64,000 nt of DNA from an uncultured Ruminiclostridium sp. (GTDB lineage Bacteria > Bacillota > Clostridia > Oscillospirales > Ruminococcaceae), in NCBI GenBank assembly GCA_947629925.1, contig CANRFO010000008.1, positions 14,722-78,721 of the forward strand, given 5' to 3'. Positions 3,017-22,156 of the stretch are shown here, in pieces; within the stretch, counting starts at the first letter, position 1; each line of letters starts with the position of its first letter. Under the pieces are notes generated by a model, which saw only the letters and a program-made list of their open reading frames with translations, had not been told where the DNA came from and searched no databases. Made by a program: the position numbers and the translations under genes.

Positions 3017-5974
3017 GTGGATAATATTTTGGCAAGTCTGAATATCAAGCTGAAAAAATCGCTGGCAGTCCTGCTGGCGGCAAGTATGATCACGGGCATA
3101 CCGCAGTTTCCCGTTTTTGCCGCCGACGACGGAACTGACACCGAACAGGAAGAATCCTCGATAAATCAGGATCTTGTTGTTGGCGTCAACCGCGACGATA
3201 CTTATGCCAATTACCTGAACTCCCATTCAGACGCGGCTCATCCCGATGCCGAGATAACGATAAACGGCGCGGACTTTGTTTCAAAGGAAGCCGACGATTC
3301 GGGCGTTGAACCTGATATAGAGGTCACCGATTTTCAGGGCGAAAGCAACGTTGCCGTCTGGTCCAACCACGGAGGCGTGCTGAACTACGAATTTAACGTG
3401 GCTGAAGAGGGACTTTACAATCTTGAGATGCTGTACTACACCATCGCGGGCAACAACACAGTCATCGAGATCTCCCTCAAGATAGACGGTGAATATCCCT
3501 TCTCTGCGGCAAAGACGTTCACTCTCGACCGTTACTGGAAGGATGAGACCGCCATCTACAAGGACAGCCGCGACAACGACGTACGTCCCGGTCAGACCGA
3601 GTATGACGCATGGGTAACATATCCTATAAAGGATAAGGAAGGTCTGTTCAACGAGCCTTACTTCTTCTGGCTCGAATCAGGAAAGCACACCCTTACCATT
3701 ACAGGTATAAAGTGCAACATCGGCCTTAAATCCATGACCTTTAAAAACTATGATCCCGTGCCTGAATATACAGCTCCTTCCCAGTCGGACATAGACGCTA
3801 CTCCCGCCCTTACAGGCGAGAACGAGATAGGAAGCAGCACCATTTTCCTTCAGGCTGAGAACAACCTTTATAAGACCGCTTCCACCCTGTATGCCACTAC
3901 CGACCGTACCGAGTGCAAGACCAGTCCCTCCCACCCCACCAAGCAGCGCTACAACACAATGGGGCAGGCTACATGGAACAAGTCCACTCAGTCGGTAACA
4001 TGGGAATACAATATTCCCGCTGACGGTTACTACACCTTCAGCTTCAAGGTAAGGCAGAACCAGATGCGCGGCTTCTACGCCAACCGAAGAGTGTATATCG
4101 ACGGCGTTGTTCCCAATACATATTACGACGACGTAATGTTCCCGTACAGCAACAACTGGTACGCTCAGGGAATCGAAGACGCTGACGGGAATCCTGTTTA
4201 CGTTTACCTTACCGCAGGCAAGCACACCATCACGATGGAAGCTATCCCCGGCGACATCGGCGAGGTAATGCAGAGACTTGACGACGTGGTATACGAGCTT
4301 AACTACTATTACAGACGTATACTCATGATAACAGGTCCTGAGCCTGACGAATACACCGACTACTATGTAGATACGGCTATCCCCGAGCTTCTCCCTTCAT
4401 TTGAGAGAATAATAGACAGACTGTATGAAGAAAAAGCCACTATCGAAAAACTGGGTACAGGTTCCGAGGCTTCTACCCTTGAAACCGTTGCGGTAATCCT
4501 TAACCGCTGCCTTGAGGACCCTGACGATATCCCCGAAATAGCTTCCACCCTGAAGGACTACATCGCTTCGCTTTCCGCATGGATGCGCGATTACCGCGAC
4601 CAGCCCCTTGAGATGGACTATATGGAGATCCTGACTTCTCATGAAAGCCCAGCAGTTCCCACAGGCAACTTCTTTGAAAACCTTGTGTTCGGCTTCAACG
4701 CTTTCATAGGCTCCTTCTTTGAGGATTACAACAGCATTTCCGAAAATGCTTCCGAAACCGCGCTGAACGTCTGGGTAGGTCTTGCCCGTGACCAGGCGAT
4801 GGCGATAAAGGAGCAGGTGGACAGTGACTTCAACGTAAATCACCAGGGAGTCACCGCTTCAATAAACCTTGTTGTAGGCGGTATCCTTGAAGCAACGCTG
4901 GCAGGAAAGGGACCTGAGATTGCGCTCTTTATCGGCGGCGACTTCCCGATACAGCTTGCCGCCCGTGACCTGCTGGTCGATCTTACCGAGTTCCCCGATT
5001 ATAAAGACGTCGTTTCCCGCTTCAGTCCCAACATAATGACGCTTTATACATATAATAAAGGCGTTTACGGTCTTCCCGTATCGCAGACGTTCCCGATGAT
5101 GTTCTACAGAACGGATATTCTGGGAGAGCTCAACATAGATGAGCCGCCTGAGACATGGACCGAGCTTATCGACATTATCAACGTGTTCCAGCGTTCTTAC
5201 CTTGACGTAGGTCTGCTTACACCTGCGGCGGTAACTACCACCTCGGTATTCGACGCAGGCGACACCTTCGTAATGCTGATGCTCCAGAGAGGGCTGAACA
5301 TTTACAACGACGACCTTACGAAGACCACATACGATCAGGAAGCAAGCCTTGAAGCTTTTGAAATGTGGACCAACTTCTACAATGTATACGCGCTGGATCA
5401 GACTTACGACGCATTCAGCCGTTTCAGAACAGGCGAGATGCCCATAGTCATACAGCCTTACACCTTCTACAATCAGCTTTCAGTTTCCGCACCTGAGATA
5501 AAGGGTCTGTGGGACTTCACGGTAGTTCCGGGAACTCCTCAGGAGGACGGCACGATAAATCATACCGTAAACTCTTCTTCCGCGGGCGCGCTGATATTTA
5601 CCAAGGTTTCCAATACCAACGCGGCATGGGATTTCATCAAATGGTTCACCTCCACGGAAGTGCAGGTTGAATACGGCAGAACGATAGAAGCTCTTATGGG
5701 CCCGATGGGACGTTTCGATACCGCAAACGTTGAAGCCATTCAGCAGCTTCCCTGGTCCACGTCGGAGATCGGCAAGATAACCGCTCAGATGAGCCAGACC
5801 AACGAGGTTCCTATCATACCCGCTTCCTACGCTACCACCCGTCACACCAAGAACGCGTTCAGAGCGGTGGTAAACGACGGTGATAACGCGAGATACGCTC
5901 TTACGAGCTACAACCGCGACATCAACACCGAGATCGAAAGAAAGAATAAGGAGCTTTCAACGTTCAGCTCTTAA
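3017..5974 (+). CDS. Large extracellular solute-binding protein (carbohydrate ABC type) with N-terminal beta-sandwich/CBM-like modules
   Basis: Signal peptide; repeated G-x-Y-x-L/F...GKHTLTI motifs; C-terminal sugar SBP motifs (YGLPVSQTFPMMFYRTDIL, PETWTEL, AWDFIKWFTS). Confidence 0.85.
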   Translation: MDNILASLNIKLKKSLAVLLAASMITGIPQFPVFAADDGTDTEQEESSINQDLVVGVNRDDTYANYLNSHSDAAHPDAEITINGADFVSKEADDSGVEPDIEVTDFQGESNVAVWSNHGGVLNYEFNVAEEGLYNLEMLYYTIAGNNTVIEISLKIDGEYPFSAAKTFTLDRYWKDETAIYKDSRDNDVRPGQTEYDAWVTYPIKDKEGLFNEPYFFWLESGKHTLTITGIKCNIGLKSMTFKNYDPVPEYTAPSQSDIDATPALTGENEIGSSTIFLQAENNLYKTASTLYATTDRTECKTSPSHPTKQRYNTMGQATWNKSTQSVTWEYNIPADGYYTFSFKVRQNQMRGFYANRRVYIDGVVPNTYYDDVMFPYSNNWYAQGIEDADGNPVYVYLTAGKHTITMEAIPGDIGEVMQRLDDVVYELNYYYRRILMITGPEPDEYTDYYVDTAIPELLPSFERIIDRLYEEKATIEKLGTGSEASTLETVAVILNRCLEDPDDIPEIASTLKDYIASLSAWMRDYRDQPLEMDYMEILTSHESPAVPTGNFFENLVFGFNAFIGSFFEDYNSISENASETALNVWVGLARDQAMAIKEQVDSDFNVNHQGVTASINLVVGGILEATLAGKGPEIALFIGGDFPIQLAARDLLVDLTEFPDYKDVVSRFSPNIMTLYTYNKGVYGLPVSQTFPMMFYRTDILGELNIDEPPETWTELIDIINVFQRSYLDVGLLTPAAVTTTSVFDAGDTFVMLMLQRGLNIYNDDLTKTTYDQEASLEAFEMWTNFYNVYALDQTYDAFSRFRTGEMPIVIQPYTFYNQLSVSAPEIKGLWDFTVVPGTPQEDGTINHTVNSSSAGALIFTKVSNTNAAWDFIKWFTSTEVQVEYGRTIEALMGPMGRFDTANVEAIQQLPWSTSEIGKITAQMSQTNEVPIIPASYATTRHTKNAFRAVVNDGDNARYALTSYNRDINTEIERKNKELSTFSS

Positions 5975-9452: not shown

Positions 9453-10096
9453 CGGCAATGCGGTTTGATCTTGATATGCCTGCTTGGAAATGGCCGTTCT
9501 ATGTTGCAAGGCACCCCTTCGAGGGCTTTGAGGACGTAAGATGGAAAAAGGCTTATAACAGCAAGGTGGCGCTGGTCATCGTACTGTGCCTGTTCATCGT
9601 GACCGTTGCCGCTCGTCTTATGACAGGCTTCGTTTTCCAGACAAATTTTGAGAAAGTATTTAATATAGTTCCCCTGTTTTCAAGCTCAGTCCTGATCTTC
9701 TTCATCTGGGTAGTGGGCAACTGGTCGCTTTGTACGCTGTTCAACGGCGAAGGCAAAATGCAGCAGATAATGTGCGTTACAGCGTATGCGCTGGTTCCGT
9801 ACATAATCTCCCAAGTAGTTTACATCTTTGCCAGCAACATTCTGACAAGGCAGGAGGGCGCGATACTGACCTTTATCTCCTATATCGGCATAGTCTGGTC
9901 GGTGGTACTGGTCATATCGGCGATGAAAGCGGTGCATCAGTATTCGATGCCCAAGACGCTGTTGGCGATCCTCTTTACTCTGGTCGCAATGGTCATCATC
10001 GTTCTTGTTCTTATTCTGCTTATCTCTCTGTTCCAGCAGGTGGTAATGTTCGTTTACTCGATATACACCGAGCTGATGTACAGATTCAGTATGTAA
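9449..10096 (+). CDS. Yip1-family membrane protein
   Basis: PFYVARHPFEGF start, about 5 TM helices, GNWSLCTLFNGEG and TAYALVP motifs; 4-bp overlap with the upstream gene. Confidence 0.7.
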   Translation: MTAMRFDLDMPAWKWPFYVARHPFEGFEDVRWKKAYNSKVALVIVLCLFIVTVAARLMTGFVFQTNFEKVFNIVPLFSSSVLIFFIWVVGNWSLCTLFNGEGKMQQIMCVTAYALVPYIISQVVYIFASNILTRQEGAILTFISYIGIVWSVVLVISAMKAVHQYSMPKTLLAILFTLVAMVIIVLVLILLISLFQQVVMFVYSIYTELMYRFSM

Positions 10097-10134
10097 AACC
10101 GCTCAATATCTCATGAAAGGAGATAATCAACACG

Positions 10135-12510
10135 ATGCTAACATTCAGAAGAAAGCTGCTGGCAGCGCTTCTTGCGGCAACGATAGCGTTAAGCTCAGGT
10201 ATCGTATGGTCTGAAAACGCCGACGACACCGAACCCGCCGCGGAAGAAGCAGCCGAAGGCGGTCAGGAAGCGGAAGCTCCCGCCAATGACGCCGAAGGCA
10301 GCGGCGAAGAGGAGGAAGCTCCCGTTACCGAAGAGGAGGCGCTTGCCGCCATGACGGTATATGCTGAGGTCGATAACCTGAAGCTGTACGTCAACGAGGA
10401 GACCGCGATCTTCGCAGTTGAAAATACCGACGACGGATATATCTGGTGGTCAACTCCATACGATTATGAGAGCGACCCTATCGCAGGAAACGTACAGAAG
10501 CAGCTTATGGCTTCTGCAGTTTCCTTTAAGCCTATGGATGTGGAAAACGGTACTCTGCTCAATACCACCACATTCTCCTATGAAGGCTCGATCAAGAAAA
10601 AGGACTTCACCCTCCAGAAGATAGACAACGGCTTCAGACTTGATATGAATATTGCGTCAAACAATATTTCCATTCCCATCACCGTTGCTCTTGAACCCGG
10701 CGGAAGCGTTATCGCAAAGGTGCTTACCGATGAGATAAACGAATGGGTGATCGACGATCACGAGCTTCTCAAGGAATACAAACTGATAACGCTGAACTTC
10801 CTTCAGTCCTTCGGCGCAGGCAGAGCGGACGAGGACGGATATATGCTGATACCTGACGGTTCGGGCGCCGCTATCAATTTCAACAACGGAAAGACCTCGA
10901 CTCAGGTTTATCAGAGACCTATATACGGAAAAGACCTTGCGGTGAGCAAGACCTCCGCCGATCCCAAGACTGAGGATATTTACCTTCCTGTTCTCGGTAT
11001 CGTAAAGGATAACGACAACGGCGACGACGCCATGCTGGCGGTAGTTACCGAAGGCGACGCTTATGCTCAGATAAACGCTTCGGTAAGCGGTCAGGCTACC
11101 ACGTCAATAAACAGCGCATGGTTCAGCTTCGACTTCCGCGCGGTCGACCGTTACACTATCGGTACGAAAAAGCCTCTGGACGTTTTCCAGGCAGGCGATA
11201 TAAGGATAGACAGCATTGCGGTTCGTTACTACATAATGGCAAAGGACGAAATAAACGTCGCTGACCTTGCCGACACTTACCGCAACTACCTTATAAATGA
11301 AAAGGGGCTGCAAAAGCAGTCGATGGACGATTCAAACGCTCTTTATCTTACCACCATGGGCGGTACGATACTGAAACAGTCCGTTCTCGGCTTCCCCGTT
11401 GATATGCAGACCGTTGCCACCTCTTATGAGCAGGCTCAGGATATAATCAGTCAGCTCAACGGATTTGGCGTAGACGAAATGATCATCATTTACAACGACT
11501 TCAACGACAACGGCGTTACAGGAAAGATCTCCAACGGCGTGAACTATTCGGGAAAGCTTGGCGGAAAGAACGCATTCAATGACCTTTACGGATACATAAA
11601 GGAAAATAACTACGTTCTTTATCCCAGCATCGACATAATGGAATATGTGAGAAGCGGCTACGGTTATTCCTTCACGCTGAACAGCTCAAAGCGCATAACC
11701 AACGCTTACGCTACTCAGACAGCCTTCGAGCTTGCCTACGGTCAGCCCGATACAGACGTAAAGCCCACCTGGACGATACTTTCGCCTTACTACTGGCCCG
11801 ACCTGTTCAACAAGATCGTAAAATCCTTTAACGATGAGGGAATAGATACGATCTCACTGAATCAGGCTACCAGCGTTCTTTACAGCGACTTCGGCAGAAA
11901 GAACTTTGACGGCAAGGATCAGTTCGTTCGCGGCGACGCCATGAAGATACTCATTGACGGCTACAAACAGCTCAACGACGCAGGCATCTCCATGATCGCA
12001 CAGGAATGCAACGCTTACGCCCTGCCTTATGTCAAGGCGATAACCAACGTTCCTATGTACAGCTCGAACTACGACCTGTTCGACTATGACGTTCCTTTCT
12101 ACCAGATGGTAATCCACGGTTATATCCCATACAGCTCCAAGCCTATAAACGCAAGCTCCAATGCCGACGAGCTGCTGCTGCTCTCCCTGATGACAGGCGC
12201 AGGCGTTCACTATGAGCTTATGTACAATACCCCCGGCGAGTTCTCCGACAGCGAATACGACAAGTATTTCTACGCGAACTACTCAGGCTGGCTTGAAAAA
12301 GCTGCTGAGGATTACAAGCTGCTGAACGACATCATTTCCTCTTTCAGCACGCAGACTATCACAAAGTATGAGATCAAGGACAACAAGGTATACTCAGTCA
12401 CCTATTCTGACGGGACTGAGATAGAGGTAGACATAAATAACCTTACCTACACTGTAAACGGGCAGGAACACAGTCTTCCCGATAATCAACTGAAAGGAGA
12501 GGAAAACTGA
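10135..12510 (+). CDS. Secreted DUF5696-like protein
   Basis: Signal peptide, acidic linker, LYVNEETAIFAV/GYIWWSTP, GYMLIPDGSGAAINFNNGK, VPFYQMVIHGYIPY motifs typical of this cluster. Confidence 0.65.
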   Translation: MLTFRRKLLAALLAATIALSSGIVWSENADDTEPAAEEAAEGGQEAEAPANDAEGSGEEEEAPVTEEEALAAMTVYAEVDNLKLYVNEETAIFAVENTDDGYIWWSTPYDYESDPIAGNVQKQLMASAVSFKPMDVENGTLLNTTTFSYEGSIKKKDFTLQKIDNGFRLDMNIASNNISIPITVALEPGGSVIAKVLTDEINEWVIDDHELLKEYKLITLNFLQSFGAGRADEDGYMLIPDGSGAAINFNNGKTSTQVYQRPIYGKDLAVSKTSADPKTEDIYLPVLGIVKDNDNGDDAMLAVVTEGDAYAQINASVSGQATTSINSAWFSFDFRAVDRYTIGTKKPLDVFQAGDIRIDSIAVRYYIMAKDEINVADLADTYRNYLINEKGLQKQSMDDSNALYLTTMGGTILKQSVLGFPVDMQTVATSYEQAQDIISQLNGFGVDEMIIIYNDFNDNGVTGKISNGVNYSGKLGGKNAFNDLYGYIKENNYVLYPSIDIMEYVRSGYGYSFTLNSSKRITNAYATQTAFELAYGQPDTDVKPTWTILSPYYWPDLFNKIVKSFNDEGIDTISLNQATSVLYSDFGRKNFDGKDQFVRGDAMKILIDGYKQLNDAGISMIAQECNAYALPYVKAITNVPMYSSNYDLFDYDVPFYQMVIHGYIPYSSKPINASSNADELLLLSLMTGAGVHYELMYNTPGEFSDSEYDKYFYANYSGWLEKAAEDYKLLNDIISSFSTQTITKYEIKDNKVYSVTYSDGTEIEVDINNLTYTVNGQEHSLPDNQLKGEEN

Positions 12511-13670
12511 TGGCACCGCTTAATGAAAAAGAAAAAATGTCAGAAGAAGCTGCTGAAGTTACCGAGCAGGCTGTTGAAGCAGTAGAAACTGCCGAAGCGA
12601 CCGAGCAGGCTGTCGAGGCGGTAGAAGCTGCCGAAACAGAAGCAGTTGAAGCTGTAGGGCAGGACGCAGCCGCTGCCGTTGCAGAAAACGACGGCTACGC
12701 TAAACGCGGAGGCGGAAAAAAGCCCGATCAGAACAAAAAGACGCGCATTTCCTATGAGCGCAAAAAGAGGCTTTACGGCTACGGATTTATCATGCTGTGG
12801 CTTCTGGGAACTATTTACATGTTCATCATACCTATGGTAGAATCCATGAGATATTCCCTTTCCCATACCGAAATGGCAAGCGCCAGCGACTATATGACCT
12901 ATCCCGGCATGACAGGACCCGGTATTTACTGCGAATGGAACAACTTCGGCAACTACTATGACGAGTTCAACACCGACCAGAACTATGTGCCGAACCTTAT
13001 AGAATCGCTTAGCGCGATGCCCGGCGACACATTCATGATACTGGTATTCAGCTTGTTCATAGCTTTGCTCCTCAGCCAGAACTTCAAAGGCAGAGGTCTT
13101 GCCAGAGCGATATTCTTCATACCTGTTCTTGTTGCGACAGGACCTGTCCTGTCGGTAATCAACGGCGATATGGGAAGCCAGGGCATAGGCGACGCTTCAC
13201 AGTTCAGCTCATTGTTTGAGGTGGACATGGTAGACTCCTTCCTTGAGTTCATGGGCTTCGCAAACATAAGCCAGTCACTTGCCGACCAGCTTGGTCAGAT
13301 AGCCAGCGGTCTGTTCAACCTGATATGGCGCTGCGGTATCCAGACGATAATCTTCCTGTCAGCTTTGCAGCAGATCTCCACCTCCGCCAAGGAAGCGGCG
13401 CAGATGGAAGGCGCAACAGGCTGGGAATTCTTCTGGAAGATAACCTTCCCCACCATCAGCCCGATGATCCTTGTAAACCTGATCTATACCGTAATCGACT
13501 GCTTCATAGACTCGGCTAACCCTGTCATGAGCCAGGTTATGGATAAGGCTTCATCATGGGAATACGGCATAAGCGCTGCGATGGCGTGGACATACTTCCT
13601 TATTGTCGGTATCGCTCTCGGTATCATATCGGCGATCGTATCCAAGTTTATATTCTATCAGGTAGATTAA
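12510..13670 (+). CDS. Carbohydrate ABC permease with acidic N-terminal extension
   Basis: EAA loop AKEAAQMEGATGWEFFWKITFP; E/A-rich N-terminus containing a 39-bp tandem duplication. Confidence 0.85.
   Translation: MAPLNEKEKMSEEAAEVTEQAVEAVETAEATEQAVEAVEAAETEAVEAVGQDAAAAVAENDGYAKRGGGKKPDQNKKTRISYERKKRLYGYGFIMLWLLGTIYMFIIPMVESMRYSLSHTEMASASDYMTYPGMTGPGIYCEWNNFGNYYDEFNTDQNYVPNLIESLSAMPGDTFMILVFSLFIALLLSQNFKGRGLARAIFFIPVLVATGPVLSVINGDMGSQGIGDASQFSSLFEVDMVDSFLEFMGFANISQSLADQLGQIASGLFNLIWRCGIQTIIFLSALQQISTSAKEAAQMEGATGWEFFWKITFPTISPMILVNLIYTVIDCFIDSANPVMSQVMDKASSWEYGISAAMAWTYFLIVGIALGIISAIVSKFIFYQVD
12561..12638 (+). repeat. 39-bp imperfect tandem duplication (TEQAVEAVE-AE) inside the permease N-terminus
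   Basis: accgagcaggctgttgaagcagtagaaactgccgaagcg / accgagcaggctgtcgaggcggtagaagctgccgaaaca. Confidence 0.75.
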
Positions 13671-13683
13671 GGAGGGTTGATAA

Positions 13684-14931
13684 GTGGCTAAAAAAGATAA
13701 AGATATTAAAAAGGAAATACAGACCGCTGAAGCTGCTCCAGAAGCAGTCGAAGCAGTTGAAGCCGCCGCTGCCGATACAGTGCAGAAGGCGGAGAGTGCC
13801 GCCGATTCCCTCAAGGATACAGTGGTAAAAGTAAGCGACGATGACGCGAAGGTTCAGAAGGTATACACCAAGAAAGAGCTTAAAGAAATAGAAAAGAAGC
13901 AGAAAGAGCTTCACAAAAAGTACCATGTAAGCAACTGGGAAATACTGAAAAACTACCGTAACTATAACGACTCCGAAAAGCAGCATTATCGCTACATATT
14001 CGGCAGACGTGTGGCAGCGAAGGTATGGCCCATATTCAGATTCCTCATTCTGTTCGGACTCGGTTTCGTAATCATGTACCCTATTCTGTTCATGATCTCC
14101 GCCGCTATCCGTCCTCAGGCTGAGATGAACGACCCGTCTATCATGTGGATACCTAAGACCCTGAGATTTGAAAATATCTCTGAGGTCTGGGAAGCGATAC
14201 ATTATCCCACTCTTTTGTGGAACACCATTTCAGTAAACCTTATCTGCTCTGTTATTCAGGTCGTTACCTGCGCTATTACGGGCTACGGCTTTGCAAGATT
14301 CAAGTTCAAGGGCAGAGGCTTCCTGTTCGTTATCGTTATCCTTCAGATAATCGTTCCTACTCAGATAATCCTTATCCCTCAGTTCATGCAGTTCAGATAC
14401 TTTGATATTTTCGGTATCTTTGCCGCAATAACAGGTACGGGCGAGGGTCTGAACCTTACTGACCAGCCGTGGGCGCTGTACTTGCAGGCGATATGCGTAA
14501 ACGGTATCCGAGCAGGTCTGTTCATATTCATTTACAGGCAATTCTTCCGCGGGCTTCCCAAGGAGCTTGAGGACGCCGCTCACCTTGACGGCTGCGGACC
14601 TTTCTCAACATTCATACGCATAATGGTCCCCAACGCACGCTCTTCATTCCTTACAGTATTCGTATTCTCAATGGTATGGTACTGGAACGACTCATATGTA
14701 TCGGGAATGTTCTACAACGACGCGGACACTATCGCGCTGCAGGTATCCAACCTTTATTCAACCATTTCGTCGTGGCTTAACGGAGGTACTCCTACGGGTA
14801 TCCCTCAGGACTTCATGGTATGGATCGAAGCAGGATGTTTGCTGTCCCTCATACCTATCGTAATTATTTACTGCTTCTTGCAGAGGTACTTTATTGAAGG
14901 TATTGAGAGATCCGGTATCACAGGTATGTGA
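13684..14931 (+). CDS. Carbohydrate ABC permease with charged N-terminal extension
   Basis: EAA loop LPKELEDAAHLDGCG; FSMVWYWND; multiple TM helices. Confidence 0.9.
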   Translation: MAKKDKDIKKEIQTAEAAPEAVEAVEAAAADTVQKAESAADSLKDTVVKVSDDDAKVQKVYTKKELKEIEKKQKELHKKYHVSNWEILKNYRNYNDSEKQHYRYIFGRRVAAKVWPIFRFLILFGLGFVIMYPILFMISAAIRPQAEMNDPSIMWIPKTLRFENISEVWEAIHYPTLLWNTISVNLICSVIQVVTCAITGYGFARFKFKGRGFLFVIVILQIIVPTQIILIPQFMQFRYFDIFGIFAAITGTGEGLNLTDQPWALYLQAICVNGIRAGLFIFIYRQFFRGLPKELEDAAHLDGCGPFSTFIRIMVPNARSSFLTVFVFSMVWYWNDSYVSGMFYNDADTIALQVSNLYSTISSWLNGGTPTGIPQDFMVWIEAGCLLSLIPIVIIYCFLQRYFIEGIERSGITGM

Positions 14932-14945
14932 TTTTCGGCTCAAAG

Positions 14946-14974
14946 AAAAGGCTTGGTTTTTCCAAGCCTTTTTT
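14946..14974 (+). terminator. Intrinsic terminator of the ABC cluster
   Basis: aaaaggcttgg-ttttt-ccaagcctttttt. Confidence 0.8.
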
Positions 14975-15037
14975 GTTTTTGGGGATCGTGAGACGGGTGA
15001 TACTGAGAGGATTTCTTTTGGAAAAGAAATCCTCGTA

Positions 15038-15079
15038 GCCGCACTGACATAGGAAAAACACAGGTTTTCGCAGAAAACC
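15038..15079. repeat. REP-like short palindromic repeat, family B (inverted relative to the 25483 and 57856 copies)
   Basis: gccgcactgacataggaaaaacacaggttttc is nearly the reverse complement of 57870-57901. Confidence 0.65.
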
Positions 15080-15098
15080 GCGAAGCGCCGCAGGCTCG

Positions 15099-15187
15099 CA
15101 CAAAAGCGGCAGATACAAGGAAACGCTCTGCAGCAATCCTTGATGGATTGTAAGGAGTGTTGACGAAGTGGATGTCGTTTTTGTGGC
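15099..15187. repeat. ~90-bp dispersed structured element, family C, copy 1
   Basis: Aligns by eye with 22279-22376 (aaagcggcagata..aaacgctc..cttgayggatygta(a)aggagygytga..gtttttgyggc). Confidence 0.6.
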
Positions 15188-15341
15188 AGAGCTTGCGGCT
15201 GTGTTTTCCTGTGGCGGGGCGGCTGTGGGCTCTCCTTAGAAAACTGTGCGTAGGATTTACAGCTTTACCGTTAAAAACTATGTTGTGGAAAATATACGGC
15301 GGTTTATGTACTGCGCTATAACAAGGTAGTGCTTGTCAGGG

Positions 15342-15444
15342 GCGGCGAAGCCGCAGTCGGCGCTTTGCGCCGACCTGATGATTTTGCTTCGCAAAATCAT
15401 CACTTTTGTTCGGGCTGCGCCCGAACAAAAGGCGGCTTCGCCGC
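15342..15444. repeat. Multi-hairpin palindromic element, family A, copy 1
   Basis: gcggcgaagccgc + three perfect hairpins (loops ttt, ttc, tgc) + gcggcttcgccgc. Confidence 0.85.
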
Positions 15445-15561
15445 CCCGCTCCACGCACATCTTCCCTTAAACCCGCACCGCCTTATAAACCCATTAAATT
15501 CCCACCCCAAAAAGAAAAACGCTGACCGTGGGAACCACAGTCAGCGCAGATATGTACATGA

Positions 15562-15927
15562 TTATTCCTCAACTACCTCAGCTTCGGGAGCGTTCTTCTT
15601 AACGCTTTCGATACCGTTCAGGCAGCTGGGCTTAGCCTTGTAGCCCTCGCTGGTAGCGATTATCTCACCGTTGCGAGCCTTGAGTCTGAAACGATATTCG
15701 CCCTTCTTGTCCTGATAAACCTCAAATTTGGGGTGCTTGAGAGTTTCGTAGCCTTCAACGGTCTGATCCTCAACGCCGCCCTCGCAGCACTTGCGAACGC
15801 TTTCGATACCGTTCTTGCAAGCGGAATCGGTGGTGTACACCTCGCTGGTAGCGATAACTTCGCCGTTGCCTGCCTTCAGGTCGAACTTAACGCCTGTTGC
15901 AGTGTGCTTGATAACAAACTTGCCCAT
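15562..15927 (-). CDS. yegP: YegP-family (tandem DUF1508) protein
   Basis: Two copies of F-x-L-K-A-x-N-G-E-x-I-A-T-S-E-x-Y...C-x-N-G-I-E-S-V. Confidence 0.85.
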   Translation of the reverse strand: MGKFVIKHTATGVKFDLKAGNGEVIATSEVYTTDSACKNGIESVRKCCEGGVEDQTVEGYETLKHPKFEVYQDKKGEYRFRLKARNGEIIATSEGYKAKPSCLNGIESVKKNAPEAEVVEE

Positions 15928-16045
15928 GGTTTTTTCCTCCTGAATTTTAAAATTAAATATTGACCCGACTGTTCGGGAAAAGTACGAATTCTATTTATTA
16001 AATTATAACATATTTTCCGCAAAAAAGCAAGAAAAAACAACATAA

Positions 16046-16074
16046 TTGACAAAGGTATTTTGTTATGCTACAAT
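16046..16074 (+). promoter_or_regulatory. Sigma-A promoter for rmuC
   Basis: TTGACA-17 bp-TACAAT with an extended TG. Confidence 0.7.
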
Positions 16075-16108
16075 AATTACAGTTAATTTTCAGAATGAAG
16101 GAGCAGAA

Positions 16109-17410
16109 ATGGAGATCTTAGGAATAATTTTTTCGGCAGTTTCAATCATTATCAGCATTATCCTGCTGATAATCGTTATAAAAAACGGTAAGCCCTCAGG
16201 CGGCGGGGACAATTCCAAGGAGCTTGAGGTGATAAAGGACAGGCTTTCCACCCTTTCCACCGACCAGAAGGGAAGTCAGACGGAATTAAGGCGGGAAGTT
16301 TCCGACAACATAAAGGGCTTGTCCCAAATGCTCAGCGACAGCCAACGTCAGTCCGCAGACAATATGAATCAGCGGCTGGAATTGCTGGAGCACCGCTTGC
16401 AGGGCATAGAGAAAAACAACGTAGACGCCCTTTCCAAGGTAAACGAAACGGTAAACAAGCAGCTGCTTGAAATAAGGGAGGACAACGGCAAGCGCCTTGA
16501 CCAGATAAGGACCACCGTTGATGAAAAGCTGCAAAAGACCCTTGATGAGAGAATGACCCAGTCCTTCAAGACCGTAAGCGAGCGCCTTGAAGAGGTACAC
16601 AAGGGGCTCGGCGAAATGCAGAGCCTTGCGGCGGGAGTGGGGGATCTGAAAAAGATACTCTCCAACGTGAAAACAAGAGGTATTATGGGCGAAACTCAGC
16701 TTGAGGGTATTTTGTCCGAAATTCTTGCCCCCGAACAGTATGAAAAAGACGTTGCCACAATCCCTGACAGCAAGAACCGCGTCGAATTTGCAATAAAGCT
16801 CCCCGGCGACGGAGACGGAACTATCTATCTTCCCATAGACGCAAAATTCCCCGGCGATACATACCATGCGCTGAGAGACGCTTACGACAGCGGCGACAAG
16901 GACACGGTTGATGCGGCGAAAAAAGTCCTTGCCGAGCGGATACGAAACAGCGCAAAGGACATTCACGACAAATACATACAGCCCCCTCACACCACAGGTT
17001 TCGGAATAATGTTCCTGCCCTTTGAGGGGCTTTACGCCGAGGTGGTGAATATGGGGCTGGTAGAGGAGCTCCAGCAGAAATTTCAGGTGAACATAGCGGG
17101 ACCCTCCACAATGGCGGCAATGCTGAACTCTCTTTATATGGGCTTTCGCACCCTTGCGATACAAAAGCGCAGCGACGACGTATGGAAGGTGCTTTCAGGC
17201 GTCAAGGGTGAGTTTGAGAACTTTGAAAAGGTGCTTAAATCGGCGCAAATGCGTTCCCGTCAGCTTGACGACGATCTGGAAAAGCTGGTGGGCGTTCGCA
17301 CCCGTCAGATAAACAAATCCCTCAAAAGCGTTGAGACCCTTGAAGGCGGTCTGGACGGACTTGTAGCGATAATACAGGGAACGGACGAAACGGAAAATGA
17401 GGAAGAATAA
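16109..17410 (+). CDS. rmuC: DNA recombination protein RmuC
   Basis: N-terminal TM, coiled coil, LSNVKTRGIMGETQLE, LPIDAKFP, FGIMFLPFEGLYAE, IAGPSTMAAMLNSL; ATG 16109 after GAAGGAG. Confidence 0.92.
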   Translation: MEILGIIFSAVSIIISIILLIIVIKNGKPSGGGDNSKELEVIKDRLSTLSTDQKGSQTELRREVSDNIKGLSQMLSDSQRQSADNMNQRLELLEHRLQGIEKNNVDALSKVNETVNKQLLEIREDNGKRLDQIRTTVDEKLQKTLDERMTQSFKTVSERLEEVHKGLGEMQSLAAGVGDLKKILSNVKTRGIMGETQLEGILSEILAPEQYEKDVATIPDSKNRVEFAIKLPGDGDGTIYLPIDAKFPGDTYHALRDAYDSGDKDTVDAAKKVLAERIRNSAKDIHDKYIQPPHTTGFGIMFLPFEGLYAEVVNMGLVEELQQKFQVNIAGPSTMAAMLNSLYMGFRTLAIQKRSDDVWKVLSGVKGEFENFEKVLKSAQMRSRQLDDDLEKLVGVRTRQINKSLKSVETLEGGLDGLVAIIQGTDETENEEE

Positions 17411-17443
17411 AAAATGCCGTGGAGCAAATTCCACGGCGTTTTT
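17409..17443. terminator. Bidirectional terminator between rmuC and the acp gene
   Basis: aaaatgccgtgga-gcaaat-tccacggcgttttt between convergent genes. Confidence 0.75.
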
Positions 17444-17451
17444 ATGCCCTT

Positions 17452-17685
17452 TTACATACGTTCCTTAATTATATTCGCCATTTCCCCCACGTTTTTCATA
17501 CCGCTCACCTCGCCCATGGTAAAGCGCACGCCGAATTCGCTTTCCACAGCGTCTATCAGCGTGATGTGGTTCAGGCTGTCCCAGTCCTCGATGTCGTCGG
17601 CGGTGGTGTCCTCGTTCACGGTAATGCTTTCGTCGTCAAAAACATCTCTGAACACGCCGTTCAGTCTTTCGTATATCTCGTCCAT
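17452..17685 (-). CDS. Acyl carrier protein
   Basis: 77 aa, acidic, WDSLNHITLI phosphopantetheine attachment motif. Confidence 0.9.
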   Translation of the reverse strand: MDEIYERLNGVFRDVFDDESITVNEDTTADDIEDWDSLNHITLIDAVESEFGVRFTMGEVSGMKNVGEMANIIKERM

Positions 17686-17700
17686 AGCTCAAGCTCCCTT

Positions 17701-19464
17701 TCAGTTTATTTCAATATGTGAAGTTCGGTTTTCGTAAGGATCAATTGACAGCTCCCAGCGGGTATTTCCCTCGCCGTCCTCCTCCGTCTTTGTGAAACCG
17801 AAGTCCATATACAGATCCTTTACCATAGAATTTTTCGGAGTGGGGTAATAATGTCCCACCAGCTTAGTTATGCCCTGCTCCCTTGCCTTTTGAACAAGCA
17901 CGTCCAGCATAGCAAATTCCATTTCTCTTTTCAGCACACGGCAGCTCATCAGCCAAAGCTGAATATCAAGAACGTCGCCCTGCTTTTCCCCAATGACCAC
18001 GCTCACAATGCCGTTGTCGCCGTATTTGTCCGTAAGCCGCCCACAAAGGCGGATATAATTTTCACTTTTGTACACCTTTTCCATCTCGGCAGGGGAATAG
18101 CGTTTGGTGGTAAGATTAAACTGGTTGCTCTTGTTGGTGAGCTGGGTAACTCTTGCCAGATTGATAGGCGAAAAGTCCTCAATAACTGCTTTCATCTCAA
18201 GAAAATCCAGATATTCCCCGTAATCCTTGAAGGAGGACTGCGCCGCCGCCCTCTCGGCGTTCTGCTTGTACATCTCAACTCTGCGCAGGTCGTCGGCGGA
18301 GAAGTTCGTCACTTCAAAATATCCGCCCTTGTCAAGGGTCTTGATATAATTTTCAATGCCGTCCATAGGCGGGGTCTCTATCCCCATATCGCCCACTATC
18401 GCGCGCTCGGCGGGATTGTCGTCCACGAACACAATGCTTTCGGGGAGCAGGTCAAGCTCCTTTGCGGTCTGCTGAATGTTCAGGCTTTTAGGGTCCCAGT
18501 TCGCCTTTATCACGGTGAAATCGTCAGGGCGAAGAACGCCGTCAGGGTGTTCAAGTCCTGCAATTGCATTTTCACGGTCGTTTTTGGAGCATACTGTCAG
18601 CAGTACCCCAAGCTGTTTTTGCGCCTTGATGTAGGACTGAAACTCGCAGTACGCCTGCCCCAACGGTACTTCCTGCCCCAGAGCAAGGTTTTCAACTCCG
18701 TCGTCCCCCACAACGCCGCCCCAGAGGGTGTTGTCAAGGTCAAGGGCGAGGACCTTTTTGTTCTTTCCAAGGAGAGAAGCGAAAATTTTCGCCAGACTAA
18801 AGGCAAAATCAGGGAAAAACGGCACAGCCACCGCATACTTGTACATATTCCAGTACAGCGGGTCGGAAAACTTTTCCAGTCCCAAAGATGCGCTGAGGTA
18901 GTTTATATCGTGAATGTAAAAATCACTGTGCGCTGCGGCGTAATCGTAAAAACCGCCGTTCAGCCTTGTCACAAAGTTCACCCTGCCGTGAAAGTCGGCG
19001 CAGTCCTTGTTGCCCAGCAGCCTCCAGTACGGCATTTCCATATTGTTTTGTATAACGGGACAGGAAAGGTCCTCCCTCAGCTTATCCCACATCACGGTGA
19101 AATGCTCAAGCTGATTTTTCAGCAGACCGTCTACTTCCTCCTTGCTCATTGACATTTCGGGGAAAGCGGAAATATTTCTTGAAGTGGTGTGGATAAACAC
19201 AAAATCAGGCTGAAACTCACGCAGCTCGGCGCCGAACATTGCGTCCTGCCAGTATTGAGCGTATTCGCACTGGTAAAATTCCGCCTTTATCCCGTAATAA
19301 AGCAGGAAAAGCTCCAGCATATCCACGATTCCGTTGGTGGTGGAGCCGCCCAGCACCGCTATTTTCTTTTCGATTCGCTTGCTGCCGTCTGAAAGCAGAG
19401 CGCGCTTCAGCGACCGCTGCTTTTTCATTATTTCGGCGCTGTCAAAGGGATAAAAATTTGCCAT
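17701..19464 (-). CDS. FkbH-like HAD-IIIC phosphatase/glyceryl-ACP transferase
   Basis: HAD motif LDLDNTLWGGVVGDDG, VCSKND, VFVDDNPAER, QLTNKSNQFNLTTKRY, DKYGDNGIV, WLMSCRVLKR; N-terminal SGNH-like region. Confidence 0.88.
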   Translation of the reverse strand: MANFYPFDSAEIMKKQRSLKRALLSDGSKRIEKKIAVLGGSTTNGIVDMLELFLLYYGIKAEFYQCEYAQYWQDAMFGAELREFQPDFVFIHTTSRNISAFPEMSMSKEEVDGLLKNQLEHFTVMWDKLREDLSCPVIQNNMEMPYWRLLGNKDCADFHGRVNFVTRLNGGFYDYAAAHSDFYIHDINYLSASLGLEKFSDPLYWNMYKYAVAVPFFPDFAFSLAKIFASLLGKNKKVLALDLDNTLWGGVVGDDGVENLALGQEVPLGQAYCEFQSYIKAQKQLGVLLTVCSKNDRENAIAGLEHPDGVLRPDDFTVIKANWDPKSLNIQQTAKELDLLPESIVFVDDNPAERAIVGDMGIETPPMDGIENYIKTLDKGGYFEVTNFSADDLRRVEMYKQNAERAAAQSSFKDYGEYLDFLEMKAVIEDFSPINLARVTQLTNKSNQFNLTTKRYSPAEMEKVYKSENYIRLCGRLTDKYGDNGIVSVVIGEKQGDVLDIQLWLMSCRVLKREMEFAMLDVLVQKAREQGITKLVGHYYPTPKNSMVKDLYMDFGFTKTEEDGEGNTRWELSIDPYENRTSHIEIN

Positions 19465-19477
19465 GCCCTGCTCCTTT

Positions 19478-20626
19478 TTATTTTATAATGGCGTTCATGC
19501 AGGAACAATTCGCCCCCGCGGGAGTAAAAGTACACATAGCGAAAAGCAGGTCGGTAGCTCCTACCTCCTTGCAGAAGTCGGTAAGCTCCAGATCAAAATA
19601 TCTCAGATCCGTAACGTATATTTTTTCATAGCACTCTGTCAGGAAAGGGATAAGCGCGTTTCCGTAGCTTTCCTTGCAGACCACGAGGGTTTTTCCGTTT
19701 TTGCAGTCGGTATCTATCTCGGCTATGCAGATGTCAGTTCCCAAAAATGAAAGATAATATCCGCTTGCGTCGGGGTAAGTGAACAGGTGTCCCTGATAGC
19801 CGTTTTGGAATGAAGTGTCATAATAAGTGGTCGTAAGAGCGTCCGCATTAGGGGAAATGTAGAGGTCAAAGGGTTCAGGGTCGTTGTACAGATTTACGCT
19901 TTTGGAGTAGTTGTACATTGAGCCGACATAGCCTTCCTTAGTTACCTTTTCATACTCCGTAAGAGCGGGGAAAAGATCGTCGACTCCCGCAGTCTTTGCA
20001 AAGGCTTCAGCGGCGTAATAAGCGCCAAGCGGCTGCCAGTGGTGATCGGTGCGGGTGTATACAGGCTCTTCCTTGTGTTCCTCAAGTGCGCTGTAAGCGT
20101 CAACTGAAACAGCCTTTGAAAGCCCGTCGGCTATGTAGTCTATTTTTTCCTTCTGGCTTGCGGAATAACCGCTCACATCATCGGGAAGATAAAATTCCAC
20201 GGAGGTGGGGATTATCATACTGTATACATTAACGTCGGGAAGCTTTTCCGCCGCCTTCTCTACGCAGGAAACATAGTTATCGCAAAGCTCAAACGTTCCC
20301 CAGCAGCCCATAAGCCCCATATAATGACCGTTTCTTCCTATTATAAGAATGTTGTTTTCGCCGTATTCACGGTAATCATCGGGAACATTCCCGGGTTCTT
20401 CGGAGGGGGCGGGAGTTTCCTCAGGCTCGGTGGTGGTCGTGGTCACAGGAGTAGTGGTAGTTGCAACAGTTGTGGTGGTAGTGGTGGTAGTTATTGCCGC
20501 TTCGGTAGTAACGGAGGTATCGGCGGAGGTATTTTCAGGCTGAAGCTTTTCCGCCTCTGAACAGCCTGAAACGGCAAGCGCGGCGCACAGCACAACAGCG
20601 GCGCCGAAAAATTTATTTTTACGCAT
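19478..20626 (-). CDS. DHHW-family (AlgJ/AlgX-like) lipoprotein with Thr-rich linker
   Basis: Lipobox AVSGC; YTRTDHHWQPLGAYY; KESYGNA; poly-Thr stalk. Confidence 0.8.
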   Translation of the reverse strand: MRKNKFFGAAVVLCAALAVSGCSEAEKLQPENTSADTSVTTEAAITTTTTTTTVATTTTPVTTTTTEPEETPAPSEEPGNVPDDYREYGENNILIIGRNGHYMGLMGCWGTFELCDNYVSCVEKAAEKLPDVNVYSMIIPTSVEFYLPDDVSGYSASQKEKIDYIADGLSKAVSVDAYSALEEHKEEPVYTRTDHHWQPLGAYYAAEAFAKTAGVDDLFPALTEYEKVTKEGYVGSMYNYSKSVNLYNDPEPFDLYISPNADALTTTYYDTSFQNGYQGHLFTYPDASGYYLSFLGTDICIAEIDTDCKNGKTLVVCKESYGNALIPFLTECYEKIYVTDLRYFDLELTDFCKEVGATDLLFAMCTFTPAGANCSCMNAIIK

Positions 20627-20656
20627 TTTACAGCCTTTCTCGTTTTTAACCTGTTT

Positions 20657-22030
20657 TTATTGTGTTCTTATTTTTTCCATATACTTTTCACAGTTTACCC
20701 CTGCTGCTGAGAAGGTACACATTGAGAAAAGCAGGTCGGTGACGCCCTGTTCCTTAATAAATTCTACGGCGTTGATGTCAAAGTATCTTATATCGCAGAC
20801 GTATATCTCTTCAAAGCTGTTCATATAGAAGGGGATCTCGGCGTTGCCGTAGCTGTCCTTGAATACGACCAGCTTTCTGCCGTTATTCACGTCGGTGGTG
20901 ACCTTAACTATCTTTCTGTCTCCGCCCATAAACATGGAATAGGAATCGTTTACGGGCATATCTATAAAGAACGGCCATTTTTCAAATTCAATATTGAACG
21001 AGGTGTCGTAATAATCGGTGGTGTATTTGTTGGTGGGTTTATAATAGGTGAAGGTTTCGGGGTCGTTAAGCAGATCGCCGTCCTGCGTCGTGCTGTACAT
21101 ACTTCCCATGTATCCCTCAACATCGACCCGCTCAAGCTGAGAAATATCTGCAAAAGGAACATCAGCGGCTTTAGCAAAGGCTTCAGCGGCATAATAAGCG
21201 CCCAGCGGCTGCCAGTGGTAGTCGGTTCGCAGATATATCGGTTCCTGGGAGTGTTCGAGCAGGACGCTGTAACAGTCAACGTTTATTACCTTGTCGCTGA
21301 AATGATCCGCCATGTAGAAAATGTCGTCCTTCTGGGATGCGTTATACTGATCGTATTCATGGGGGATATAGTATTCGCCTGAGGTGGGAGCGGTCATTAC
21401 ATAAACCTGAACGTCGTCCCCCAGATCCTCCGCAAAGGCATTCACCTGCTCCACAAAAGTATCGCGGCTATATCCTCCGCCATACATACTGCACGCCCAG
21501 TAATGTCCGTCGCTGCGCTTCATAACGAGCTGACCGTTGGTCTGAACGCCTGGGGCTATCTCGTTTTTCGGGTCATAAGAGGTGGTTGTGGCTTCCGTAG
21601 TCTGTGACGCAGAGGTTTCGGTCGCTTCGGAAACGCTGCCAACACTGTTTTCGGATACGGGAGGCTCAGTGGCGGGAGAAGAAGCAGTGGTAACTATCTG
21701 GGCAGGTCCGCCGTGAACGGTCACGCCGCCAAAAGACACGCCCATATACTTCGTTATATTGGAAGAAATATTTTTAAACCCGTCTCTCCAAGGCACTGTG
21801 TCGTCAAACCACTCGGTCACTCCGTCGGTAAAATCTCCGCTGAAGAAATCGGCAACGGAAAACTCAGGGAATTTCGCCAGCTCTCTGCGCTCGATCTGCG
21901 ACTCGACAGGACGCTCAAAAACAAGAAGATATATGGTTATGCCTGCAAAAAGCAAGGCTACCGCCGCTATATTGGCTATTATCCACGGCGAAACGCCTTT
22001 TTTCTCTTTAAGATGTTTTCCTTTGCTCAT
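20657..22030 (-). CDS. DHHW-family (AlgJ/AlgX-like) membrane-anchored protein
   Basis: N-terminal TM; ERRELAKFPEFS..F..WFDDTVPWR; YLRTDYHWQPLGAYY; KDSYGNA; paralogous to the downstream gene. Confidence 0.8.
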   Translation of the reverse strand: MSKGKHLKEKKGVSPWIIANIAAVALLFAGITIYLLVFERPVESQIERRELAKFPEFSVADFFSGDFTDGVTEWFDDTVPWRDGFKNISSNITKYMGVSFGGVTVHGGPAQIVTTASSPATEPPVSENSVGSVSEATETSASQTTEATTTSYDPKNEIAPGVQTNGQLVMKRSDGHYWACSMYGGGYSRDTFVEQVNAFAEDLGDDVQVYVMTAPTSGEYYIPHEYDQYNASQKDDIFYMADHFSDKVINVDCYSVLLEHSQEPIYLRTDYHWQPLGAYYAAEAFAKAADVPFADISQLERVDVEGYMGSMYSTTQDGDLLNDPETFTYYKPTNKYTTDYYDTSFNIEFEKWPFFIDMPVNDSYSMFMGGDRKIVKVTTDVNNGRKLVVFKDSYGNAEIPFYMNSFEEIYVCDIRYFDINAVEFIKEQGVTDLLFSMCTFSAAGVNCEKYMEKIRTQ

Positions 22031-22127
22031 GTCAGGCTCCTTAACTCTTGTTCGGCGAACAACTTATGAAAATATGATTTCACTTTTCACGGAATGTATC
22101 ATAAAATCATTTGTTTTTTACCATACT

Positions 22128-22156
22128 ATTATACACCCGTTGCAATAAAACGTCAA
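22128..22156 (-). promoter_or_regulatory. Sigma-A promoter of the DHHW-FkbH-ACP operon
   Basis: Minus strand TTGACG-17 bp-TATAAT with an extended TG. Confidence 0.7.

Follow-up and report, generated by a model that had tools for sequence, protein, structure and literature searches.

What does a gut bacterium do with an operon that places an FkbH-type enzyme and its own acyl carrier protein (ACP) next to two predicted extracytoplasmic proteins of the DHHW family? Such an operon occupies positions 17452-22030, on the minus strand, of a 64,000-nucleotide stretch of an uncultured Ruminiclostridium sp. (assembly GCA_947629925.1, contig CANRFO010000008.1, positions 14,722 to 78,721; this whole stretch is hereafter the window). 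D-alanylation by the Dlt system has been presented as the sole acylation of envelope polymers that uses a carrier protein (PMC12148441). The answer that we favour, with a probability of roughly 55%, is that the operon encodes the donor-loading and acceptor side of a carrier-dependent, Dlt-like O-acylation of an envelope polymer. Its four co-directional open reading frames (ORFs) are separated by gaps of 30, 13 and 15 bp:

20657-22030, minus strand: DHHW-A, first gene, 457 aa, PF14286 match
19478-20626, minus strand: DHHW-B, second gene, 382 aa, PF14286 match
17701-19464, minus strand: FkbH-type loader, third gene, 587 aa, TIGR01686 match
17452-17685, minus strand: ACP, last gene, 77 aa, PF00550 match

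The product of the third gene matches the FkbH domain model TIGR01686 with 270.7 bits (cut-off 146.65, E 1.6e-80) and, further, the profiles TIGR01681 (HAD-IIIC) and PF21211 (FkbH_N). It consists of three domains, namely, FkbH_N (~34-224), a HAD-IIIC phosphatase and a GNAT-fold C-terminus. The HAD-IIIC residues are D242xD244 (in D-L-D-N-T), S293-K294-N295, K320 and D348-D349, of which D242/D244, S293, K294/K320 and D348/D349 are invariant across 30 homologues, and the GNAT-fold domain bears a conserved M-S-C508-R-V motif. The Protein Data Bank (PDB) entry 3SLR (BF1531) matches the N-terminal and HAD part (8e-43). In a Foldseek search with an AlphaFold2 model of the protein (pLDDT, the predicted local distance difference test score, 75), the same structure was recovered for residues 1 to ~390, and the C-terminus resembled GNAT acetyltransferases (TM-score ~0.7). 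Alignment with an FkbH-type protein from a nonribosomal peptide synthetase/polyketide synthase (NRPS/PKS) cluster on a Bacillus cereus plasmid, probably ZmaN of the zwittermicin cluster, gave ~27% identity. The two proteins have the DxD, SKN, DD, TNQxN and MSCRV motifs in common; C508 is kept in the B. cereus homologue, whereas C292 of the window protein (in VCSKN) is replaced there by Ala. In polyketide pathways, an FkbH-like enzyme and a standalone ACP produce glyceryl-ACP with 1,3-bisphosphoglycerate (1,3-BPG) as the substrate (PMC7489565), and from homology at ~27% identity to the NRPS/PKS-cluster protein we infer that the acyl group handled here would be glyceryl.

The ACP gene begins 15 bp 3' of the FkbH gene, and its product scores 23.0 bits against PF00550 (PP-binding; cut-off 20.8), with the phosphopantetheine site at Ser37 in W-D-S-L. 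Of 75 ACP orthologues, 73 keep this motif as W-D-S-L/F and one more has A-D-S-L. Comparison with NCBIfam returned weak matches to generic AcpP models and none to a DltC model. An earlier interpretation made from the letters of the window without database searches (hereafter the sequence-only reading) had called an FkbH-type HAD enzyme with a dedicated ACP; both calls are borne out by TIGR01686, PF21211 and PF00550, the first and last above curated cut-offs. It had also remarked that the operon has no PKS or NRPS, no adenylating ligase and no membrane-bound O-acyltransferase (MBOAT). Indeed, no PKS, NRPS or adenylating (AMP-binding) enzyme was called in the operon or within ±10 kb, and no MBOAT in the 64 kb.

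The first two gene products match PF14286 (DHHW; cut-off 25 bits), both with secondary matches to PF16822 (AlgX). DHHW-A scores 169.2 bits (E 2.1e-49) and covers profile positions 1-384; DHHW-B scores 150.3 bits (E 1.2e-43) over positions 153-384 only, that is, the catalytic half alone. In DHHW-A, a basic N-terminus and a single transmembrane (TM) helix precede a juxtamembrane module (ERRELAKFPEFS...FFSG...DTVPWRDGF), which a linker rich in Ser and Thr connects to the catalytic domain. DHHW-B starts with a lipoprotein signal (...LAVSG-C22), followed by a Thr-rich linker and the catalytic half of the DHHW domain, which is of the permuted, SGNH-like kind. With the TM helix of one and the lipobox (AVSG-C) of the other, both are predicted to be extracytoplasmic. 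Enzymes of the PatB1 type have three catalytic blocks: the D-x-H in DHHW, the Ser nucleophile and the oxyanion Arg of DxRY (PMC9487903). The corresponding residues are D270/H272 (DYHW), S393 (DSYGN) and D413/R415 (DIRY) in DHHW-A and D194/H196 (DHHW), S320 (ESYGN) and D340/R342 (DLRY) in DHHW-B. Thus, the TDYHW/TDHHW and DSYGN/ESYGN motifs quoted in the sequence-only reading are found in the two proteins. The three blocks are kept by most of 87 DHHW homologues, including most copies from the MBOAT-less clade described below. The closest solved relative is PDB 4NZK (E. siraeum EUBSIR_00411), with E-values of 2e-100 for DHHW-A and 9e-69 for DHHW-B; DHHW-A also weakly matches the structures of PatB1 (5V8D/5V8E) and AlgJ (4O8V). 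The analogy to AlgJ and AlgX drawn earlier agrees with this organization, in which DHHW-A is membrane-anchored with an N-terminal module, DHHW-B is a catalytic-only lipoprotein and both have the catalytic residues. The N-terminal module of DHHW-A is conserved at least as strongly as in MBOAT-linked orthologues. In both proteins, a long linker of low complexity, rich in Thr, Ser and Glu, joins the membrane anchor to the catalytic domain; linker length differs greatly among relatives, in which DHHW proteins range from 380 to 930 aa.

To place the operon among its relatives, we scanned one genome per species and obtained matches to the FkbH query in at least 566 genomes at species level. Gene context was compared for the 80 best FkbH matches and nine loci from metagenomes or metagenome-assembled genomes (MAGs), altogether 82 non-redundant loci (labelled L below), all from gut or rumen Clostridia bar one from Treponema. 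An ACP gene is located directly 3' of FkbH in 73 of these loci, 65 have a DHHW gene and 44 an MBOAT gene. The combination of FkbH, ACP, DHHW and MBOAT that the sequence-only reading had suggested looking for therefore exists, with an MBOAT beside FkbH-ACP in 44 of the 82 loci, or 30 of the 45 with enough flank on both sides; one of the outcomes on which it had staked its proposal, no MBOAT in any homologous locus, was not what the survey returned.

The loci fall into five architectures. The majority form is MBOAT-DHHW-FkbH-ACP. In the clade to which the window belongs, 2-4 DHHW genes precede FkbH-ACP and no MBOAT occurs within 10 kb, and L048, with the order MBOAT-DHHW-DHHW-FkbH-ACP, is intermediate. 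Loci of Lachnospiraceae and Treponema have FkbH-ACP-MBOAT followed by a gene for a TM-anchored protein with GxS...DxxH motifs, which is an independent variant of the same logic as dltABCD. Finally, FkbH-ACP stands alone in some loci. The TM-anchored proteins 3' of ACP-linked MBOATs (L078:13626-14678, L089:13569-14483, L071:14887-15951 and L076:16575-19769) have an N-terminal TM helix and, judged by eye, GxS near the N-terminus and DxxH near the C-terminus; Pfam, NCBIfam and PDB sequence searches gave no match for them. From the anchor and the two motifs, this looks like an unrecognised SGNH/DltD-like family. In four Lachnospiraceae loci (L046, L079, L084 and L087), the gene order is trmB-like methyltransferase, FkbH, ACP, pfk, dnaX, ybaB, recR, and L089 has the same synteny except that genes for an MBOAT and an SGNH-like protein separate ACP from pfk. 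In this second and independent instance, too, the membrane module is present in some loci and missing from others. A second ACP match in one locus (L085) was discarded as the housekeeping AcpP, which adjoins acc genes.

The MBOATs of the relatives carry the signature of an acyl relay. All 45 full-length sequences end in F-x-Y-x-x-F/Y, mostly FLYFRF. FXYXXF is the acyl-shuttle motif, which DltB acylates on DltX and PatA on its own C-terminus (PMC12148441). The best family match is DltB (TIGR04091, 154 bits, below the cut-off of 375), and the best PDB matches are the DltB structures 6BUG and 8JEM. Because the MBOAT bears the shuttle motif on its own chain, like PatA and AlgI, rather than having it provided by a DltX-like microprotein, these systems represent a Dlt/Pat hybrid and not a copy of Dlt. 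According to PMC12148441, no MBOAT/SGNH pathway except Dlt has a carrier protein, and acyl-CoA is regarded as the donor in the others; the gene content FkbH-ACP-MBOAT is a counter-example to the statement that only Dlt employs a carrier protein.

Genes for polymer synthesis accompany these cassettes in the relatives. Among the 22 MBOAT-DHHW-FkbH-ACP loci for which 8 kb or more of upstream sequence is available, 11 sit directly after genes for TagF-like glycerophosphotransferases, and 8 of the 22 well-flanked loci with both MBOAT and DHHW carry Stealth phosphotransferase genes. The TagF-linked loci usually also have Stealth genes and an AT3 protein, and a few have a small membrane protein that, judged by eye, is a TagG-type ABC permease, with no Pfam match on record. 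Taken together, the ACP, the MBOAT with its shuttle motif, the DHHW protein and the polymer-gene context point to a carrier-dependent MBOAT/SGNH acylation pathway in which FkbH replaces DltA. That substitution within a Dlt/Alg-like relay had been proposed for the window from its four genes; the relatives, in which FkbH-ACP stands beside a DltB-like MBOAT with the shuttle motif and a DHHW protein, lend it support.

A route consistent with these genes would run in three steps. Judging from family membership, FkbH would take 1,3-BPG, its HAD domain would remove the 3-phosphate and the GNAT-like domain would pass the glyceryl group, probably through a thioester on Cys508, to the Ser37-phosphopantetheine of the ACP. 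The MBOAT, encoded beside these genes in the relatives and absent here, would then accept the acyl group of the ACP, carry it through the membrane and attach it to the Tyr in the F-L-Y-F-R-F shuttle motif at its own C-terminus. By analogy to PatB1 and AlgJ/AlgX, the membrane-anchored DHHW-A would accept the acyl group on Ser393 and either esterify a wall glycopolymer directly or hand the group to DHHW-B (Ser320) for the same or a second acceptor. The acceptor would be a glycerol-phosphate or sugar-phosphate chain; since related cassettes, in other genomes than that of the window, lie immediately 3' of TagF-like and Stealth genes, it is probably a teichoic-acid-like polymer.

Two relatives suggest that the acyl group can vary. 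L071, from a Treponema MAG, encodes FkbH, an aldo-keto reductase (AKR), MaoC, ACP, an MBOAT and an unannotated protein (9983-15951). L076 encodes FkbH, the N and C subunits of a transketolase, a MaoC dehydratase, ACP, a short-chain dehydrogenase/reductase (SDR), an MBOAT and two copies of an unannotated TM-anchored protein (9938-19769). MaoC together with an AKR or SDR between FkbH and ACP fits a 2,3-dihydroxyacyl-ACP that is convertible to other hydroxyacyl groups. These cassettes may thus deliver lactyl or another modified hydroxyacyl group and, indirectly, support glyceryl as the primary product.

The clade of the window, in which the MBOAT is missing and the DHHW genes are multiplied, comprises at least 16 genomes and is contiguous, that is, monophyletic, on the FkbH tree. 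Its members share 60-98% FkbH identity in unrelated genomic contexts, which indicates that the four genes travel as an MBOAT-less unit and that the arrangement is old and maintained. The ratio of nonsynonymous to synonymous substitution rates (dN/dS) is 0.04-0.13 for FkbH, 0.02-0.09 for ACP and 0.10-0.21 for the DHHW genes; thus, all four genes are under purifying selection and are not decaying. A segment with FkbH, ACP, rmuC and DUF1508 (~15500-19460) is 92-97% identical at the nucleotide level to two rabbit-gut MAGs (L010 and L011), in which identity to the window drops to 70-80% in the flanks. The DHHW genes (19478-22030) are 40-58% identical to those of the same MAGs in nucleotides and 55% and 68% in amino acids, with dS > 1. 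The source bacterium comes from rabbit gut and is related to [Eubacterium] siraeum; NCBI MAGs label it "Ruminiclostridium sp.". The locus is present in rabbit-gut metagenomic DNA runs, and in one of them (X5) the contig depth is ~340-400 over part of FkbH versus ~60 over the DHHW genes. This pattern suggests that the loader module was exchanged recently and that DHHW alleles have been swapped and are specific to lineages, and the strain-specific alleles suggest that the modification is under diversifying pressure.

Several observations weigh against an acylation pathway of this kind. Searches with hidden Markov models (HMMs), run on every ORF of 40 aa or longer, found no MBOAT in the operon or the 64-kb window; none occurs within 10 kb in the ~16 clade members either, and, apart from spurious antisense ORFs, no ORF ending in FXYXXF, as in DltX, was found in the window or the clade loci. 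With neither an MBOAT nor a DltX-like ORF, the transmembrane step is unaccounted for in this genome. Polymer-synthesis genes are likewise absent from the window. In the relatives, FXYXXF is fused to the MBOAT, which is typical of enzymes that use acyl-CoA, PatA among them (PMC12148441), and it is gene adjacency only that suggests the ACP as the acyl donor to the MBOAT. The characterised FkbH enzymes are distant (~27% identity). Six loci (L038, L046, L079, L084, L087 and L090) have FkbH-ACP with neither an MBOAT nor an SGNH partner in cis, and the subclade of L004 and L017, from mouse and other gut, has two DHHW genes and FkbH without an adjacent ACP. Given these FkbH-ACP-only and ACP-less loci, the acyl-ACP may have other sinks. 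Two Lachnospiraceae loci (L070 and L082) also lack an ACP next to FkbH, and no ACP remnant was detected by tblastn in L004, L017, L070 or L082. Among the six, L038 has its FkbH-ACP directly after TagF-like genes. L090 comes from a cultured member of the Oscillospiraceae, Subdoligranulum variabile (OY725877.1:142310-161980), where FkbH-ACP, at 48% identity, lies on a 267-kb replicon; HMM searches found no MBOAT or DHHW within 9 kb, and the neighbouring ORF picks, which gave no Pfam match, are probably spurious long ORFs.

With the MBOAT gone from the locus, the pathway could work in this genome only with an MBOAT or other transmembrane acyl conduit encoded elsewhere, and as the simplest reading we infer an MBOAT that is encoded elsewhere in the genome and acts in trans. 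A bolder version, which we regard as speculative and improbable, has the clade running the relay from FkbH and ACP to DHHW without any MBOAT: a lipid-linked precursor would be acylated in the cytoplasm and then flipped, or an unrecognised membrane partner would take part, and the multiplied, hypervariable DHHW paralogues would redistribute the ester among wall polymers.

The same gaps could mean that two functions merely share the locus, with FkbH-ACP supplying glyceryl for a cytoplasmic step (an N-glyceroylated amino sugar, or glycerate on a polymer or lipid anchor) and the DHHW proteins acting as O-acetyltransferases or esterases fed by an acetyl-CoA-dependent MBOAT. The FkbH-ACP pairs that lack membrane partners in cis, the acyl-CoA-type fused motif on the MBOATs of relatives (PMC12148441) and the window without an MBOAT all speak for such a division, as does the finding that the only glyceroyl decorations found for bacterial glycans are N-linked (PMC10609480, PMC12871550). 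Yet no cytoplasmic acyltransferase is conserved alongside the cassette, the four genes, 13-30 bp apart, are kept together across differing genomic contexts, the ACP gene directly adjoins the MBOAT gene in the Lachnospiraceae and Treponema loci, and MBOAT-DHHW-FkbH-ACP is the commonest unit. We consider a split of functions doubtful, though worth keeping in mind. Alternatively, the relay may be as proposed and the cargo different, if the FkbH enzymes of this clade load an acyl group that is not glycerate or if enzymes in trans turn glyceryl-ACP into another product, such as the lactyl group formed by FkbH-DH-KR loading modules. The ~27% identity to the NRPS/PKS-cluster homologue and the Ala found there in place of Cys292 would fit this, and the MaoC and AKR or SDR genes of L071 and L076, with the transketolase subunits of the latter, imply that the family diversifies its acyl group. 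The window operon and its clade, however, have no tailoring genes, and the intact HAD phosphatase motifs point to a phosphorylated acyl substrate. To our knowledge, 1,3-BPG is the substrate of every characterised FkbH enzyme, which also weighs against a different acyl group. The same substrate is given in the literature on the polyketide pathways (PMC7489565). On balance, another cargo seems unlikely.

We think it very improbable that the operon is a decaying remnant, left without a current function when the MBOAT was lost. Besides the missing MBOAT, the loss of the ACP in the L004/L017 subclade and the strong divergence of DHHW genes between close relatives could be read in this way, but the ORFs are intact, the catalytic motifs are kept in most DHHW copies of the clade (~16 genomes), and dN/dS is 0.02-0.21 at 60-98% FkbH identity. 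Supply of a precursor for a secondary metabolite, such as the 'glycerate utilisation' module of tetronate or methoxymalonyl-ACP pathways, is scarcely credible, even though FkbH with a standalone ACP forms the core of such modules (PMC7489565): no PKS, NRPS, FabH-like protein, FkbG, FkbI or FkbK is encoded within ±10 kb or among the recurrent neighbours in the 82 loci, and the genes conserved alongside encode extracytoplasmic DHHW proteins and MBOATs. Because no synthase is located near the operon, we rejected the secondary-metabolite reading.

Carrier-dependent acylation, the reading that we prefer, can be set against the systems already known. The proposed pathway is like Dlt (DltA, DltC, DltB, DltX and DltD; D-alanylation of teichoic acids) in its dedicated small carrier protein and cytoplasmic loading, in the DltB-like MBOAT of the relatives combined with an extracytoplasmic SGNH-type transferase, and in the association with teichoic-acid synthesis genes. 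It differs in that the loader is an FkbH-type HAD/GNAT enzyme rather than the adenylating ligase DltA, and the group transferred is presumably glycerate, a hydroxy acid, rather than D-alanine, so that, unlike with D-alanine, no positive charge would be added. Moreover, FXYXXF is fused to the MBOAT of the relatives and not carried on DltX, the SGNH partner in this branch is a DHHW protein and the window itself has no MBOAT. With PatA1/PatB1 (O-acetylation of the secondary cell wall polysaccharide of B. cereus) and CcsH/CcsI (clostridial cellulose), it shares the acceptor-side DHHW enzyme with DxH/Ser/DxRY blocks (PMC9487903) and, in the relatives, an MBOAT that ends in FXYXXF and is encoded immediately 5' of the DHHW gene. 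Neither a carrier nor a loader is part of those systems, which are taken to use acetyl-CoA (PMC12148441), whereas FkbH-ACP is conserved here; the similarity of PatB1 to the window DHHW proteins is low (E ~1e-4). The alginate system AlgI/AlgJ/AlgF/AlgX also has two SGNH-like paralogues, one anchored (AlgJ, comparable to DHHW-A) and one soluble or peripheral (AlgX, comparable to DHHW-B). The window operon differs from it in the Gram-positive host, the lack of AlgF, a DHHW-B on which no carbohydrate-binding module was detected, a donor that would be loaded on a carrier protein and the absence of an MBOAT in cis. On the loading side, the FkbH/OzmB/Mad7-Mad8 glyceryl-ACP synthases have in common with the window protein TIGR01686, the HAD-IIIC motifs, the GNAT-like C-terminus, the Cys of MSCRV and an adjacent ACP (PMC7489565); the differences are the lack of a PKS/NRPS context here, the ~27% identity, the full FkbH_N domain, which the B. 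cereus cluster homologue lacks, and a product that apparently goes to a membrane acyltransferase relay and not to a synthase. The structural-genomics orphans 4NZK and 3SLR (B. fragilis BF1531) have no assigned function, and 3SLR lacks the GNAT domain.

MBOAT/SGNH acylation of the envelope is known as such; the loader is new and the acyl group presumably new, and in the literature that we searched no paper linked FkbH or HAD-IIIC proteins to MBOAT, DltB, AlgI or wall polymers. If correct, our reading would place beside Dlt a second system of envelope acylation that depends on a carrier protein, widespread in gut and rumen Clostridia and the first to attach a neutral hydroxy acid in ester linkage. 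The walls of Gram-positive bacteria would gain a new decoration in the form of glyceroyl or similar hydroxyacyl esters, FkbH chemistry would extend from natural-product biosynthesis into cell-envelope biology and the orphan structures 4NZK and 3SLR would gain a functional context. Such esters would change surface charge, hydration, recognition by phages and lectins, and immune sensing of abundant commensals. The MBOAT-less clade offers a natural experiment on whether the membrane step may be supplied in trans or bypassed, and an MBOAT-free relay, if real, would be a third transmembrane acyl route in bacteria besides MBOAT and AT3. Subdoligranulum variabile could serve as an experimental model.

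The expression signals agree with a single transcription unit:

22299-22274: predicted terminator of the upstream rnhA gene, separate from the operon's own signals
22128-22156, minus strand: predicted sigma-70-type promoter, TTGACG-17 nt-TATAAT, a match to the consensus only (11/12)
22037-22042, minus strand: ribosome-binding site AAGGAG, read from the sequence, 6 nt 5' of the DHHW-A ATG
17406-17437, minus strand: intrinsic-terminator-like hairpin with an 8-bp stem (6 GC pairs) and ATTTTTTATT, a consensus match only

The promoter is predicted ~97 nt 5' of the DHHW-A start codon, 3' of the rnhA terminator, and the terminator-like hairpin lies 14 nt past the ACP stop codon and is common to the convergent rmuC gene. 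A search for a riboswitch or other RNA element gave no Rfam match anywhere in the window. The view of 17452-22030 as one tight operon, already taken in the sequence-only reading, is thus upheld by four minus-strand ORFs with gaps of 13-30 bp, a consensus promoter and a terminator.

Elsewhere in the window, the minus strand at 37663-41940 encodes a 1425-aa protein with two BcrAD/BadFG ATPase domains and DUF2229, an architecture like that of 2-hydroxyacyl-CoA dehydratase activases, next to SPFH/Band 7 and UvrD/PcrA helicase genes. On the plus strand, 3017-5974 encodes a 985-aa protein in which a solute-binding domain is confined to the C-terminal third, and 10135-12510 a 791-aa DUF5696 protein inside an ABC sugar-transporter cluster; this region may be a glycan-utilisation locus, apparently unrelated to the operon.

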